A program made the translations under genes and the position numbers. A stretch of 64,000 bases of DNA from assembly GCF_054482525.1 (NCBI RefSeq), contig NZ_CM137006.1, one strand, 5' to 3'. Under the pieces are notes generated by a model, which saw only the letters and a program-made list of their open reading frames with translations, made no database searches and was not told the DNA's origin. Below, one piece after another: positions 13,026 to 61,957 of the stretch. How positions within the stretch are numbered: position 1 is the stretch's first letter; each line of letters begins with the position of its first letter.

Positions 13026-13157
13026 CCCCGTTCTCCTGATCTTATTATTTCTATCACTGCGTAGCAGTCATAGTGTTGGCGCAAGATTAACAGAACTGTG
13101 AGCTGGCTCTTATATTCAAATGGAATTGCTTATTCCAGAAAGGTGATTTTTGCCTTT

Positions 13158-53200: not shown

Positions 53201-53338
53201 CGTGTAATGGCTGCATGAAATAAACAATAAAATATAAATAACATTATCAGCCTGCCGACGGCTTGAAGAGAGTCACAGTATCTTGTGCAACATTATTGGA
53301 AAGCGTGAGGGGCGAGGTAGCGAAGCGGAAAAATGTTA

Positions 53339-53443
53339 AAAAAAAGCCCATCGTGGGAGATGGGCAAAGACTACACACAGCAATTCGTTGTTTCACTCAG
53401 GGGATTTAAGTCATTGATTGATTTATGGGTATGCGGTTTTTCG
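53339..53443 (-). ncRNA. rprA: sRNA RprA (3' ~69 nt canonical, 5' end divergent)
   Basis: Minus strand 53407->53339 reads AAAUCCCCUGAGUGAAACAACGAAUUGCUGUGUGUAGUCUUUGCCCAUCUCCCACGAUGGGCUUUUUUU (rpoS-pairing region plus terminator); the 5' end coordinate is extrapolated from the expected length. Confidence 0.7.
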
Positions 53444-53472
53444 GCATAAACCAAATTAAGCAAGGCTTGAAA

Positions 53473-54054
53473 ATGGACACACAAATTGCACACATATCGC
53501 ACACAAATAAAAAGGGGTATGTATGGCGCAAGCGTTATGAAAAACGCACGATTGAAATCATCCTACGCACCCGTGATAAATCAATTGCCATAAAAAGAGC
53601 GGCATCAATAACAATTCGCTATATGGAATTAAAATCACTTGACGTTCCATTTAAAGCAATGCTGGAAATGTTAAAAAAGTTTCGTGATGGTCTGATTACG
53701 TCACATGACATTGAGCGCTTAAGGTCGATTGCGATAGCTTCACAGGAAGCTCCACACGCCGCTGTAACCGCTTCGCCTATACAAAGTGTTGGCTATGATG
53801 TCAAAACCGCTCAGAAAGCCGCACAGGGGCATTCCCTTGGCGATGCTCAAAAAGTGTACTTTGGCGCCAACACCGAATGGAAAGAAAAAACCATCAAGGC
53901 TTATTCTGGTTGTATCGACCGCTTTATTTTATGGTGCGCTAATAAAAATATTCATACCGTGGAAGAAATAACGAAAGAGCATGTGATTTCATTTAAATCC
54001 AGCATGGATGAAGAAAAATTAGCCTCCATGACTAAATTTCGCATAATAATATGA
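53473..54054 (+). pseudogene. Tyrosine-recombinase (integrase)-like N-terminal fragment; catalytic domain absent
   Basis: ORF ends after a SAM-like core-binding segment (TIKAYSGCIDRFILWCANKNIHTVEEITKEHVISFKSSMDEEKLASMT); no downstream RHRY catalytic domain; start uncertain (53425/53473). Confidence 0.4.
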
Positions 54055-54362
54055 TTCGGGTTAGCATAACCAATACTTTTATTAAAGCCTATGTATGCAC
54101 CAATTTCTTTATACTTTAACTTAGTGAAATCTGAAATAATACTCAGTGGCTGCAATACGTTATGTCCATTGTGCGCCCCTTCATTAGCGCAAAATCCTGT
54201 ATTTGCAAACTGACCTTTATCACGCCAGATGAATCTATCAACGCCGCCACATACAGGACATGGTGTATGTTCATTTGGTTTAATATCAATTCCAAAATCA
54301 TTCATATGCACCAATGGATTCTTTTTAATATAATTATTCAAATCAGTAAAGAAATTAGCCAT
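53952..54362 (-). pseudogene. Primase N-terminal zinc-ribbon fragment (P4-alpha/T7-gp4-type CPxCGG..C), truncated
   Basis: HTPCPVCGGVDRFIWRDKGQFANTGFCANEGAH zinc-ribbon signature; ORF stops after about 135 aa and overlaps the integrase fragment on the opposite strand. Confidence 0.45.
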
Positions 54363-56689: not shown

Positions 56690-56925
56690 TGATAATTCAA
56701 CCAATCCATTCAACCTATTCGAATGGGTGGTGAATTTTTGACCGAATTAAATTCACCTGAATATTCACCGAATGATTCACCTGAATCATTCAGCCCTTCA
56801 TTCACCACGAAACCCAGGCGCGGCGGGGCTTACAGGCCGATTCATTCACCTGAATATTCACCTGAATATTCACCTGAATTATTCAACCAAAAATTCACCT
56901 TCATATTCACTCATTCACCTCTCTA
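56690..56925. repeat. Iteron array: at least 9 TTCACC hexamers, including tandem palindromic 12-mers ATTCACCTGAAT
   Basis: TTCACC at 56751, 56763, 56775, 56800, 56844, 56856, 56868, 56893, 56913; three exact tandem 12-mers at 56843-56878. Confidence 0.65.
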
Positions 56926-57236
56926 TAAATAAGCATTGGAATGCTTTTTATAGAGGTTGATGAATGAAGGTCGTTCAAGTGAATGAACTGTGAGTTGGGT
57001 AAACCCCTAGGGGTTGGGGGTGTTGTCGATTTGTGGTAAATTCCTTCTGCCAGCGTGAAAAAGGCGCTGGTGGGGATTTGCAGCCCCAAACAAACAAAAC
57101 CATTGGCAAGGAATTGCCGATGCGCGTGCGCACGTCAGTTATGGCGGTCACGGCGAGGGAGTCGAAAGGCTCGCCAGTTTTGTTTGTTTGCTGGTACTGC
57201 AAACCTCGTCGTGATCGTCACCACGGGGATGCATGT

Positions 57237-57488
57237 ATGCAGGAAACAGACTGGCACAAAGCGGATATTCTTGCCTCTTTAAAGAAAAAGAAAATCAGCA
57301 TGGCGGGATTATCCCGTGAACATGGTTTATCAAGTAGCACGTTGCTAAATGCACTTAGTAGAGAATGGCCTAGAGGCGAATTAATTATTGCTAATGCAAT
57401 TGGTGTGTCACCTCAAGAAATATGGCCTTCTAGGTATTTTGAAAAAGATGGCTCTCCAAAAAATCGTGTGATTCGTAAACCTGTTTAA
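57237..57488 (+). CDS. Ner-like DNA-binding protein (Mu Ner / Nlp family)
   Basis: 83 aa MQETDWHKADILASLKKKKISMAGLSREHGLSSSTLLNALSREWPRGELIIANAIGVSPQEIWPSRY matches the Ner family signature; upstream in-frame extension of track ORF judged non-coding. Confidence 0.7.
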   Translation: MQETDWHKADILASLKKKKISMAGLSREHGLSSSTLLNALSREWPRGELIIANAIGVSPQEIWPSRYFEKDGSPKNRVIRKPV

Positions 57489-57705: not shown

Positions 57706-57751
57706 CCTTTTCTTTGCTTCACCAGCCCCGTAGGGGCGTGAGCGTAGCGAA
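57706..57751 (+). repeat. 46-bp direct repeat, copy 1 (identical to 61912-61957)
   Basis: ccttttctttgcttcaccagccccgtaggggcgtgagcgtagcgaa; contains hairpin GCCCC-GTA-GGGGC. Confidence 0.85.
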
Positions 57752-57849: not shown

Positions 57850-59001
57850 ATGCACGAGAAAGCGCAAACAAAAATAAAAGATACTATTAGAGAAATACTA
57901 ATCACTCCAGCAATCGCTTTTACTGGTCGTGCAGGTCATTTTGATTTTTCATTATATGAAGTTTTAGCAAATGAGCTTAACAAAAGAAAGATAAAGTTTA
58001 AAATTGATAAATTATCATGTTGGATTATTTTTGATGGCGCAAAAAAACATTACTTTCAAGATAAATCAATTACTGACGCACAAGCGATAAATGATTTTGT
58101 GGATACGTTATGTAGTATTTACTGTGAAACACCTATGGATTACTCCATCGATTTTCACTTTAGAAATTTAAAAATCGATATCAACCCGATTGATTATGAG
58201 TTTGTTTCAATTAGAGCGGGTGAGGATATTGGTATTGGTTTGTTCGCTGAAAAAGAAAAGTATGCGATTGCGAGCATTAAAAAGAATGGCTATCTTTCAG
58301 GTGGTTATCCTAGCTCATTTATAAAATCGATTTTGCAAGATTTGAAAATCTTCATTTTTTTGATTAAAAGCATTAATTTGATTAAGACAGGAAAAACCAA
58401 TTTAGCATCCACGTTATTTCAATCGATGTCCGGTCATGCTGACACAATTAAGATTGATTGCGTTAATGTTAAATATCCTTGGATGAATAGCAGTGTCCAT
58501 ATTTCAGAGTCGGTAGGGAAATTTTTACACAACTTTATCTTCAATTATGAATTTGAAGAAGGCTACATTATAGAAAAAATAGATCATTCGCTTCAGCTAA
58601 TGAATGCAATAGTAAAAGATGAGTCAAAAGAAGCCTTGCGTATCAAGGCTGCAATTGATTGGTTGGTGCAATCTGAAATCACTGATGATGAAACCATGTC
58701 TTTTATTCAAATTTGCATGGGGCTTGAATCAATTTTTGGTGATGATGATTATGAGGGTGGCCTAACAAACATACTATCTGATAGATGCGCCTACTTAATA
58801 GGGAATAAAATTAAAGAGAGGAGATTTATAAAGGACACATTTAAAAAAATATATCAAGTTAGGTCAAAGATAGTGCATGGCGTAAGAAATCATTTATCAG
58901 ATGATGAATTATATTTTAGGCATTTAGCATATTCATATTTAGAGCGTTCTATTCTAAAAGAAATTCAAAATTTAGACCTGCAATCCCATCAGGCGACGTG
59001 A
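57850..59001 (+). CDS. Hypothetical 383-aa protein with C-terminal HEPN-like R-x4-H-G motif (candidate Abi-type RNase)
   Basis: Long AT-rich ORF with SD aaggtg 11 nt upstream; RSKIVHG at residues 338-344 (nt 58861-58881) in a helical C-terminal domain. Confidence 0.65.
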   Translation: MHEKAQTKIKDTIREILITPAIAFTGRAGHFDFSLYEVLANELNKRKIKFKIDKLSCWIIFDGAKKHYFQDKSITDAQAINDFVDTLCSIYCETPMDYSIDFHFRNLKIDINPIDYEFVSIRAGEDIGIGLFAEKEKYAIASIKKNGYLSGGYPSSFIKSILQDLKIFIFLIKSINLIKTGKTNLASTLFQSMSGHADTIKIDCVNVKYPWMNSSVHISESVGKFLHNFIFNYEFEEGYIIEKIDHSLQLMNAIVKDESKEALRIKAAIDWLVQSEITDDETMSFIQICMGLESIFGDDDYEGGLTNILSDRCAYLIGNKIKERRFIKDTFKKIYQVRSKIVHGVRNHLSDDELYFRHLAYSYLERSILKEIQNLDLQSHQAT

Positions 59002-59288: not shown

Positions 59289-59732
59289 TCAGCACTGGTA
59301 AAAGTTGGCGAGGTGTGGAATATGGCTGGTGGTGGTTTCGAAAGCCTTGAGGCGTCCATTTTTATCTTTTTTCAAGTAGAGCATTTTTAGTGCTGGTGGA
59401 AATACTGAATCCATAATTCCATAAACTCCCACATTTTCGTTTTCTTCTTTAAGCATTCCCCAATATTGATAACCATTTAATGCGCTATCATCAATGCCCG
59501 TTCCAACGCGCTTAATGTGGGCAAGATATCGGCCTTTTATCGTAAAGCTAAATGATTCATCACGTTCATTTGTGCAAGTGTAAAATCCATCATCGCTTTC
59601 ATTTATAACTTCAGATGCTTCACGATTTAATGAGTACTTGTCTAAGTTGTTTATGATGTCACTTCGCTGTGCGCATCCAGTCAAATTTAGAATGGTAAAA
59701 ATTAGTACAGAAGATGCAAGATATTTGTTCAT
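59289..59732 (-). CDS. Hypothetical lipoprotein (147 aa)
   Basis: MNKYLASSVLIFTILNLTGC signal peptide plus lipobox; start at internal ATG 59732. Confidence 0.6.
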   Translation of the reverse strand: MNKYLASSVLIFTILNLTGCAQRSDIINNLDKYSLNREASEVINESDDGFYTCTNERDESFSFTIKGRYLAHIKRVGTGIDDSALNGYQYWGMLKEENENVGVYGIMDSVFPPALKMLYLKKDKNGRLKAFETTTSHIPHLANFYQC

Positions 59733-59818
59733 TTTGATTATCCATATGAAAAGCAAGGTACTTAGATTAAATTACCCTGCTTAAGCAGTAATTAGCGGTT
59801 CCGTTAATAGAGGGTAGA

Positions 59819-60178
59819 TTATTTGTTAATTTGTTTTTTAGTGTGTGAGATAAAATTTCTAAGTAAATCTTTTTCAATTACAATTTCACATTTTAGGTTT
59901 TGGCTATCGACCGCATCAATTCTATCAAACCAAAACATTAATTCCTGGCTTGCATCGCATTTACGTTTGAATTTAATTGCCCTGCCGAATTTTTCACTTA
60001 AAGAATCATCATCACATAAAAAATAAATTTTATTATTAATGGTGATTTGAATTAAATATGTCTTCCTCGTTAGGTAATCTAACCTTTCGTTAGCTTTCAG
60101 TAAGTTAGCTTCAGCTTGTTTGATGCGTATAAGAGCATCCTCTTTGCTTAAAGGGGATGTATTGACAGACTTGATCAT
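59819..60178 (-). CDS. Hypothetical protein (119 aa), upstream partner of the lipoprotein gene
   Basis: ORF co-oriented with and 62 bp upstream of the lipoprotein gene; no recognisable family. Confidence 0.5.
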   Translation of the reverse strand: MIKSVNTSPLSKEDALIRIKQAEANLLKANERLDYLTRKTYLIQITINNKIYFLCDDDSLSEKFGRAIKFKRKCDASQELMFWFDRIDAVDSQNLKCEIVIEKDLLRNFISHTKKQINK

Positions 60179-60287
60179 AATTTAATCCTTTGGTTAAGAT
60201 TCATCAAAAATATGCCATAAATAGCCTTGAAGGTTGTGTGGAATACATATTATGATAGCTTCATCTAATCAGCAAGGGGAATAATAG

Positions 60288-60443
60288 ATGCCTTCTAAAC
60301 GTGTTATATGCTCACTTGATGAGCAAGAGTTAGATATTCTCGAAAAATATAAATTACATTATAAAAATATGCATGGCGTAAAATTAAACAGAACGGCAAT
60401 TATCAAAATGTTGATTAGTCGTCTATCAAAAGAAATTCAATAA
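60288..60443 (+). CDS. Small putative ribbon-helix-helix (CopG/Arc-like) regulator, 51 aa
   Basis: MPSKRVICSLDEQELDILEKYKLHYKNMHGVKLNRTAIIKMLISRLSKEIQ: beta-strand then two helices pattern; divergent from the minus-strand pair; below ORF-track cutoff, found by own reading. Confidence 0.45.
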   Translation: MPSKRVICSLDEQELDILEKYKLHYKNMHGVKLNRTAIIKMLISRLSKEIQ

Positions 60444-60495
60444 TAATTCTAATTACCAATTAATTTAAACTTCACATAATTAAAGAGGCAACTCT

Positions 60496-60810
60496 ATGCA
60501 CACTCTTTTTTCTAAATTTAAAAACAGGAAAATTAAAATGTATCAACCACGTTATAAAAGCAGAATGATTGACGATAATGAATATAATCAGGTGCTTCAA
60601 TCGAGAATGCAAAATCTTTTAAATCAATATAATAATGAGGTTTCAAACTTAACCCGCATTGGTGTTACAAATTTGGGTTTCGGCCGATGGGATAATGGAG
60701 AGAGCAAAATCAATAACCACGTTAATAAAGTAAGTGAGACTTTGGAAAAGATGCAATCTACGCAAGCCTTGATTGATGCTCTTGCAAATGAAATTACACA
60801 AACTAATTAA
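60496..60810 (+). CDS. Hypothetical small protein A (104 aa)
   Basis: ORF with SD aaagagg 8 nt upstream; AT-rich. Confidence 0.5.
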   Translation: MHTLFSKFKNRKIKMYQPRYKSRMIDDNEYNQVLQSRMQNLLNQYNNEVSNLTRIGVTNLGFGRWDNGESKINNHVNKVSETLEKMQSTQALIDALANEITQTN

Positions 60811-60894
60811 TCGAATGGGGGATGCTTTAAATGGTAATCGCAATCATGGTTGTAATGTTTTGGGCTTTCCTGATTCTTAAAGAGGAAATGAAAT

Positions 60895-61179
60895 ATGGTT
60901 AAATTTGGAGTGTTTTACCATCATGCATGGGGTGATGGTAAAAAGGAAATCCCGCCACCTGATTTAAATTACATCCGAACCGATCCACATAAAAATAATG
61001 AAATTGCTTTAGATGTTTTTGATTCAAGAATGGACGCACAAAAACGCGCTGATTTACTAAATTCACGCATGGCAAAAAATCAAACTGGTCAGCATTATGT
61101 TGCGCCAACAACGCAAGAAACCAAAACGGCTCAAAAGCGCTTTAAGTTTCCTTGTACTAGCATTTATGGGTGGAAATGA
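60895..61179 (+). CDS. Hypothetical small protein B (94 aa)
   Basis: ORF with SD aagagga; N-terminus KFGVFYHHAWGDGKKEIPPPD resembles that of protein C. Confidence 0.5.
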   Translation: MVKFGVFYHHAWGDGKKEIPPPDLNYIRTDPHKNNEIALDVFDSRMDAQKRADLLNSRMAKNQTGQHYVAPTTQETKTAQKRFKFPCTSIYGWK

Positions 61180-61181
61180 AA

Positions 61182-61556
61182 ATGAGTAAACAATTCGGTG
61201 TTTTCTTTTGGCGAAAAGGTGACGCTATTACCGATATCCCGTCAGATAAAAATGTTGCAAATCGCGGAGTAAAGCCTAAGCGCATTTTTTCAGATTATAT
61301 TGATGGAATGCGATATAAAGATAAAATGAATGCAACAATTCCAGCGGCGCAAAAAGGTAAATATGAATATGTATTAGCGGAAATTGTTGAACCAGACCCG
61401 AACAATACAAAGGTGTTGTTTAAATCTGGAAATTTAACAGAAGCATTAAGGGCGAAGCGACAAACAACCGAACAAATCAACCGAAATAAAATTGATGCAA
61501 TGATTAAAGAAGCCGCACACGATTACCTTTACACTATTACAGGAATGGAAAAATGA
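61182..61556 (+). CDS. Hypothetical small protein C (about 125 aa; start at ATG 61182 or 61176)
   Basis: QFGVFFWRKGDAITDIPSDKN N-terminus paralogous to B; abuts stop of B. Confidence 0.5.
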   Translation: MSKQFGVFFWRKGDAITDIPSDKNVANRGVKPKRIFSDYIDGMRYKDKMNATIPAAQKGKYEYVLAEIVEPDPNNTKVLFKSGNLTEALRAKRQTTEQINRNKIDAMIKEAAHDYLYTITGMEK

Positions 61557-61852
61557 TTATTGACGAGCGATTTATTAAATGGTCAATGGTGCTGGTGGAG
61601 GCCGGAAAGCCATCACCCAGCCTCGCGGGGCTTTATAAAGGAAACACTAAAGGATTAATCTTTTATAAAACACGTGAATTGGCATCAAATGCAGCCACTA
61701 AACGGAATGAGCAATTAGCAGGAACTAAATCAACCAGCCGATTTAAAATCATTAAATTGCATGACGCAGAAGCACAACAGAAACATGATTTTCAGTTAAA
61801 ACAGGAACGCCAGCGCCGCGATGCACGCCATATGCGCCGATTTGGTTTCTAA
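61553..61852 (+). CDS. Hypothetical small protein D (99 aa), basic C-terminus
   Basis: Start ATG overlaps stop of C (ATGA), indicating translational coupling. Confidence 0.5.
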   Translation: MIIDERFIKWSMVLVEAGKPSPSLAGLYKGNTKGLIFYKTRELASNAATKRNEQLAGTKSTSRFKIIKLHDAEAQQKHDFQLKQERQRRDARHMRRFGF

Positions 61853-61911
61853 ATATAACTCAATAACTCAACCAATGGTGATGTTAAAGAATAAGGTGGC
61901 CTTAAATTTCA

Positions 61912-61957
61912 CCTTTTCTTTGCTTCACCAGCCCCGTAGGGGCGTGAGCGTAGCGAA
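61912..61957 (+). repeat. 46-bp direct repeat, copy 2 (identical to 57706-57751)
   Basis: Same 46-mer, 37 bp upstream of the tape-measure-like ORF. Confidence 0.85.

Follow-up and report, generated by a model that had tools for sequence, protein, structure and literature searches.

Phage satellites such as P4 (sid-delta-psu and epsilon), the Staphylococcus aureus pathogenicity islands (SaPIs; operon I with ppi, pti and cpm) and the phage-inducible chromosomal islands (PICIs) of Escherichia coli (rpp) carry effector operons of small, tightly packed genes, placed in one arm of a ~10–15 kb integrase-plus-primase island and accompanied by a dedicated small regulator. A comparable order, in which a tiny repressor gene comes first and effector genes follow, is found in the immI regions of P22 (arc-ant) and P1 (c4-icd-ant), and in lambda two overlapping small genes, G/GT, lie directly upstream of the tape-measure gene. 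Here we describe a locus which shares features of layout with each of these systems, namely an array of small genes, denoted A to D (positions 60496–61852), in a stretch of 64,000 nucleotides from the ydi region of the E. coli chromosome (RefSeq assembly GCF_054482525.1, contig NZ_CM137006.1), which is referred to at its full length as the window. These genes are an orphan array in a rare island, and it is from their sequence that we infer what they may do; B, C and D, with A and a micro-ORF lying between A and B, are tentatively proposed to be small phage- or host-directed effectors of a satellite-like element.

All four open reading frames (ORFs) are present on the + strand where the initial annotation had placed them, and in identical chromosomes of E. 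coli RefSeq gives the product of each as hypothetical. Their AT-richness was also confirmed, as A–D form a patch of low G+C content, 32–43% against ~50% in the flanking chromosome. The description of four translationally coupled genes was right for B/C and C/D, which overlap or abut, but not for A and B, which are 84 nt apart. The C/D overlap is an ATGA (61553–61556) that is kept in 8 of 9 related loci, and the stop codon of B (61177–61179) both overlaps an ATG at 61176, again as ATGA, and precedes by 2 nt the ATG at 61182, which is the start of C that agrees with the homologues. The spacer between A and B holds the micro-ORF, which overlaps the start of B by 8 nt; the array is one of five genes, with contiguous coupling of the micro-ORF, B, C and D. 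Among related islands the ratio of nonsynonymous to synonymous substitution rates (dN/dS) is 0.07–0.24 for A, 0.16–0.40 for B and 0.06–0.30 for C, and reaches only 0.02–0.09 for D when closer islands are compared. This range, 0.02–0.40 across the four, is that of purifying selection and marks A–D as genuine genes.

The initial annotation had also proposed, from a shared N-terminal motif, that B and C are a duplicated family. The motif is exact in B (FGVFY-x4-GD-x4-IP), but the version in C (FGVFF-x3-GD-x4-IP) needs a one-residue gap to match, and over the homologues the elements [FYW]G[VL]F[YF]..W and [IV]P are conserved whereas the ‘GD’ is not. The duplication itself is supported: although pairwise similarity is weak (BLASTP E = 0.01, marginal), profile–profile comparison by hhalign is significant, with P = 6e-4 when three B sequences were used and P = 1.4e-4 (score 29.1) with four, and none of 300 column-shuffled B alignments reached 29.1 (mean 11.4, standard deviation 2.5, maximum 22.6). 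The similarity between B and C is, at the level of sequence profiles, real but remote. B also matches D over the central strand–helix region (hhalign P = 0.0026; 0 of 150 shuffles reach the score), and direct comparison of C with D by hhalign gave no significant match.

Structure prediction adds to this picture. For C, AlphaFold2 predicts an N-terminal alpha/beta domain of ~70 amino acids, with a predicted local distance difference test score (pLDDT) of ~90 over residues 1–70 (strand 5–11, helix 22–28, strand 34–36, helix 39–51, strand 61–67), which is followed by a long C-terminal helix (85–120). B and D were modelled together as a B-linker-D construct, in which B has strand 3–9, strand 40–42, helix 45–57 and strand 66–72, and D has strand 8–16, helix 24–27, strand 37–38, helix 41–56, strand 62–70 and helix 72–97. 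The predicted elements come in the same order and at matching positions in the three proteins, with a core pLDDT of only ~70–85 for the B/D model. The hhalign match between B and D and this common order of secondary structure make D a probable third paralogue, linked to C in sequence through B, and B, C and D are likely to be tandem copies of a basic strand-strand-helix-strand domain of ~70 residues, to which C and D each add a C-terminal helix in the models. The three differ in how widely they are kept. D is 88–98% identical between genera, with an identity of only 30% in L008. B homologues (52–67% identity) occur only in L012, L006/L007 and L008, and B is found in only four lineages. In the Phytobacter massiliensis locus (L002, 10357–10656) the D homologue has an in-frame stop (…LA*LYKG…) and is a pseudogene.

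None of A–D belongs to a known family, in line with the initial annotation, which had recognised none. Pfam has no match for A, B, C or the D alignment, PHROGs and NCBIfam none for A–D, sequence-profile searches of the PDB none for B, C and D, and PADLOC yields only a chance-level score for A (Cas7g, 0.0023) and nothing for B, C and D. A profile of C run against 1.84e9 representative proteins returned four matches, made up of its own family, a 90-aa distant member (from L008) and a eukaryotic PKD-repeat protein, whose score is summed over 14 repeats and which we take to be spurious. B falls in a single 90% cluster among 5.8e9 proteins, the profile search with D finds island copies only, and one scan of GTDB species genomes gave a single locus. 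There were no relatives in phage genomes (searched with the window DNA and D), in plasmids (C) or in IMG/VR (C profile), and, as far as these searches reach, proteins of the C and D families exist in this element alone. Many small uncharacterised phage proteins have a fold that is similar at weak scores, and DUF2188 and DUF4170 recur among the Foldseek matches, at E-values of 0.09–1 only and without a Pfam sequence match. The nearest folds may be small alpha/beta domains of the DUF2188/DUF4170/DUF7204 type and the ClpS fold, and the modelled fold of B, C and D is that of a common small phage-type alpha/beta domain which is uninformative as to function.

The two smaller components of the operon and gene A show different patterns of conservation. 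The micro-ORF has its own Shine-Dalgarno sequence and is positionally conserved in all nine loci examined, where it stands before B or, if B is absent, before C, and its product remains hydrophobic despite sequence divergence in L006 and L008. Variable columns at codon positions 1/2/3 number 7/3/12, and nonsynonymous change is below synonymous change in every computable pair, a pattern of substitution that is of the coding type. Gene A is fast-evolving and is replaced in some islands: its homologue in L008 has 30% identity (E = 2e-7), the gene in the same slot of L004 has no detectable similarity to it and L006 has there an unrelated-looking gene of 52 aa. The upstream ATG of A, its AAGAGG Shine-Dalgarno sequence and the leader M-x-[TS]-L-x-x-K-F are all conserved, and its product reads as helical. 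The gene at the head of the operon encodes a protein of 51 amino acids for which a strand/helix/helix order can be read from the sequence, making it a possible ribbon-helix-helix-type (Arc/CopG-like) regulator. C, D, the micro-ORF, this 51-aa gene and a 119-aa gene on the opposite strand are universal among the islands. The features of the locus are collected in Table 1.

Table 1. Positions of the array and of other features of the island, numbered from the first nucleotide of the window
Feature	Position	Strand	Description
Gene A	60496–60810	+	104 aa from ATG 60496, or 90 aa from the RefSeq start, ATG 60538
Micro-ORF	60831–60902	+	23 aa, MVIAIMVVMFWAFLILKEEMKYG; unannotated; one hydrophobic span, then a charged tail
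Gene B	60895–61179	+	94 aa, isoelectric point (pI) 9.5; paralogue of C; only in some islands
Gene C	61182–61556	+	124 aa, pI 9.5; alternative starts ATG 61176, GTG 61170
Gene D	61553–61852	+	99 aa, pI 10.5; best-conserved member; basic C-terminal helix, FGF at the end
51-aa gene	60288–60443	+	Head of the operon; annotated coding sequence; 12/12 loci, 43–82% identity
Promoter-like sites	60227–60256, 60453–60480		
Terminator-like hairpin and U-run	61886–61921	+	−10.4 kcal/mol; ends the small-gene operon
46-nt element	57706–57751 (copy 1), 61912–61957 (copy 2)	+	CCTTTTCTTTGCTTCACCAGCCCCGTAGGGGCGTGAGCGTAGCGAA; exact repeat in the window
Tape-measure-like gene	61994–63982	+	662 aa; directly downstream of the operon, same island arm
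119-aa gene	59819–60178	−	Every island, 60–94% identity; no family match
155-aa lipoprotein gene	59289–59756	−	Lipoprotein signal (…LTGC); highly variable between islands; divergent from the operon
HEPN-annotated cargo gene	57850–59001	+	Rx4H motif RSKIVH; no Pfam, PADLOC or NCBIfam match
Ner-like HTH_35 gene	57237–57488		phrog_769
C4-type antisense RNA	57137–57225	+	Rfam RF01695, 65.8 bits; immediately precedes the Ner-like gene
Iteron-like array	56751–56911		ATTCACCTGAAT(A)-type repeats, flanked by the helicase operon and the C4 RNA
Integrase and primase remnants	53337–54362		Integrase residues 1–196 of 401, abutting an opposite-strand primase fragment, residues 1–109 of 330
rprA site	53336–53456, and beyond the window end (~64978)	−	Repeats at 13138–13208 and 24779–24849 of L001 (identical E. 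coli genome)

The initial annotation had taken the surroundings of the array for a prophage, which did not hold; the setting is instead a small, decayed, satellite-like integrative island of ~11.6 kb at rprA, flanked by direct repeats of 71 bp that duplicate the 3′ portion of this small RNA gene. Loci related to it exist in metagenomes and in Salmonella, Citrobacter, Enterobacter and Phytobacter, with synteny conserved between E. coli and these four genera, and show an intact element of ~13 kb. Its gene order runs from an integrase (401–450 aa) through a DUF723/T5orf172 endonuclease-like gene, a Zn-ribbon/Toprim primase, a 108-aa gene and a DUF3987 or AAA_25 helicase to a small gene. Diverging from these are a C4-type antisense RNA, a Ner-like HTH_35 regulator and a variable cargo slot, then the lipoprotein gene and the conserved 119-aa gene on the opposite strand, and the island ends with the 51-aa gene, A, the micro-ORF, (B), C, D, the terminator and a tape-measure-like gene. 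In the window copy the integrase and primase are reduced to the abutting remnants listed in Table 1, the catalytic half of the integrase and the DUF723/T5orf172 gene being gone. Decay is also seen in L003, which has lost integrase, primase, helicase and tape-measure gene and retains A, the micro-ORF, C and D intact. That the operon is kept in decayed islands suggests a function independent of island mobility. The element is present in 5 of 5426 complete E. coli genomes.

The likeness to P4 extends to an integrase, a split P4-alpha-type primase/helicase and a C4/CI-type antisense RNA, the last of which is also a feature of P1. The right-arm genes, in contrast, have no PHROG match to psu, sid or delta, and no P2/P4 cos is present. 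From the PICIs, the island has the integrase, regulator and pri-rep components, but a packaging-related family (terS/ppi/rpp/cpm) was not detected, and the island genes that were scanned include none recognisable as capsid- or packaging-redirecting; A–D themselves have no sequence or profile similarity to P4, SaPI or PICI proteins in PHROGs or Pfam. The immI regions of P22 and P1 resemble the array in its leading putative repressor gene and in the C4-type RNA elsewhere in the island, but A–D are unrelated in sequence to Ant/Icd, and the C4 RNA is upstream of the Ner-like gene and not of the A–D operon. The loop of this RNA, GUUUUGUUUGUUUG, has a perfect complement at ~57089–57102, which suggests an RNA immunity circuit in the style of P1/P4. 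The iteron-like array is possibly a replication origin or operator region of the island, and the lipoprotein may be a superinfection-exclusion protein.

The neighbour described as a defence gene in the initial annotation is the occupant of the cargo slot. RefSeq annotates it as HEPN and it has an Rx4H motif, but Pfam and PADLOC do not match it and it lies 1.5 kb from the array, across two opposite-strand genes; sister islands carry unrelated genes in this slot.

We propose a single operon that begins with the 51-aa gene, continues through A, the micro-ORF and B to D and is closed by the terminator. The terminator stem differs in sequence among loci with its pairing retained, and in L002 and L009 the hairpin is deleted. 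Copy 2 of an exactly repeated 46-nt element, for which the chance expectation in the window is 0, directly follows this terminator. The two copies precede the HEPN-annotated cargo gene and the tape-measure-like gene, respectively, and the element is present in all related islands in 2–3 copies each, bordering variable regions. It includes the hairpin GCCCCGTAGGGGC, in which one change is compensatory, and a long inverted repeat that folds well (z = −3.8) has the upstream copy as one of its arms. The element may be an anchor or border for cassette exchange or a shared regulatory or RNA element. Targeting of the element by the C4-like RNA was considered and rejected, the complement of the C4 loop being the site given above, and co-variation of D with the hairpin is unsupported, as L008 keeps one canonical copy alongside a D of only 30% identity.

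The tape-measure-like protein matches PHROG tape-measure families (3.5e-21) and TIGR01541 at 82 bits, below the cutoff of 104.75, and its homologues match PF09718; its similarity to phage tape-measure proteins is weak, and the island carries no other virion genes. The window allele is 36–38% identical to those of other islands, which are 47–86% identical among themselves, so that on sequence comparison the gene behaves as a swappable cassette. Across one such swap, between the window and L010 (38% identity), D is 98% and A 86% identical. To our knowledge, no P4, SaPI or PICI satellite family carries a tape-measure-like gene, and a literature search returned no description of satellites with tape-measure genes or of islands at rprA. 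Tail-assembly-inhibition (Tai) systems were also considered as an analogue, with no link found, as these are single genes in other hotspots.

In the scheme that we tentatively prefer, the operon would be expressed under the 51-aa putative repressor from the right arm of a satellite-like island, and B, C and D would bind a phage or host partner, being anti-repressor-like or interfering with assembly or expression. The targets would be the helper of the satellite or competing phages, the paralogues would diversify target specificity, the micro-peptide would be a membrane accessory and A a helical accessory component, and B, C and D would not be specific partners of the tape-measure-like protein. 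The scheme draws on the paralogy, the operon layout, the satellite-like setting, the persistence in decayed islands, the constancy of D and A across tape-measure alleles and the weakly scoring likeness in fold to small phage proteins. Several results weigh against this scheme. The element is absent from IMG/VR viral contigs as judged by the C profile, and a motif search found no lambda- or P2/P4-type cos sequence in the island, which is why its status as a phage satellite or related hitcher element is drawn from gene content and is given here as satellite-like; the ribbon-helix-helix assignment of the 51-aa protein is unsupported by Pfam and PDB profile searches, neither of which gave a match; and the basic pI of B, C and D, with the basic helices at their termini, would suit nucleic-acid binding just as well. 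The last point leads to a rather doubtful alternative, in which these three proteins, perhaps with A, bind nucleic acid and regulate the island, for example as a directionality factor for excision, as an activator of late genes or as an antitermination or processing factor on the 46-nt hairpin. The pI values of 9.5–10.5 and arginine/lysine-rich C-terminal helices would be explained, as would the lack of a recognisable Xis/AlpA gene in the island and the extreme conservation of D and of the 46-nt element before the cargo slot and the tape-measure gene. Against this, the searches matched no DNA-binding family or fold, helix-turn-helix and winged-helix included, L008 denies it a clean covariation of D with the element, and three paralogues exceed what a regulator would need. 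It is unlikely that the operon is instead a membrane-directed exclusion, abortive-infection or addiction module, with the 23-aa peptide as effector or toxin and the soluble proteins as sensors or antidotes. Such a module would explain the persistence of the operon in islands stripped of mobility genes, and it accords with the conserved hydrophobic micro-ORF coupled to B/C and with the divergent lipoprotein gene, with its LTGC lipobox, beside the operon; but PADLOC is negative, neither a toxin nor an antitoxin family came up, the micro-ORF may be no more than a leader peptide for coupling and nothing ties B, C and D to membranes.

The initial annotation had suggested anti-defence or host-takeover proteins directed at host immunity or machinery, and genes that are small, AT-rich, fast-evolving, variably present (in the case of B), tightly packed and orphan, on a mobile element that also has a cargo slot with a HEPN-annotated gene, are of the expected kind. 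We regard this as unlikely, given that the operon is kept in decayed, immobile islands where the element would gain nothing from an anti-defence role, that the dN/dS of D is unlike that of arms-race proteins and that PHROGs and Pfam show no similarity to a known inhibitor family. The position of the array also recalls lambda, as C and D are two overlapping small genes that immediately precede the tape-measure-like gene wherever an island carries one, and the frame of D in the window is −1 with respect to C and open from 61508, such that C/D could be a tail-assembly chaperone pair analogous to G/GT. This is highly improbable. No slippery heptamer of the X_XXY_YYZ type lies in 61508–61556, D starts from an ATG of its own and has a Shine-Dalgarno sequence, AGGA, and the frame relation varies, D of L003 being in the +1 frame and 1 nt past C; a programmed C–D frameshift was rejected on these grounds and for want of a family match, there being no Phage_TAC match to C or D in Pfam, PHROGs or NCBIfam. 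Tail-assembly chaperones of the lambda G/GT kind are typically acidic, whereas B, C and D are basic, a terminator stands between D and the tape-measure-like gene, and L003 retains C and D without a tape-measure gene. The 98% identity of D, and the little-changed A, across the swap of tape-measure alleles argue in the same direction, and the comparison with lambda fails on frameshift signal, charge, family match and co-variation alike.

Returning to the reading of B, C and D as effectors of a satellite-like element, its furthest extension is that the islands are an undescribed enterobacterial satellite family, which would bring along an exchangeable tape-measure gene and an operon of its own for effectors of a new fold family, namely A, the 23-aa membrane peptide and the B/C/D paralogues. 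These would act on a siphovirus helper through, for instance, anti-repression or diversion of tail assembly, and the 46-nt sequence would be a cassette border or regulatory element. We consider this unlikely as a whole, but if the island is a true satellite it would be the first known to us to bring its own tape-measure protein, and its core would be the A–D operon, as the best-conserved module and the obvious place for a mechanism by which a helper is exploited or blocked. The B/C/D family is new and narrow, and the interest lies mostly in the whole element. The domain is unannotated anywhere and is found in few clusters among billions of proteins; since its fold resembles a large class of small phage proteins, a function for B, C and D could inform many orphan phage genes.

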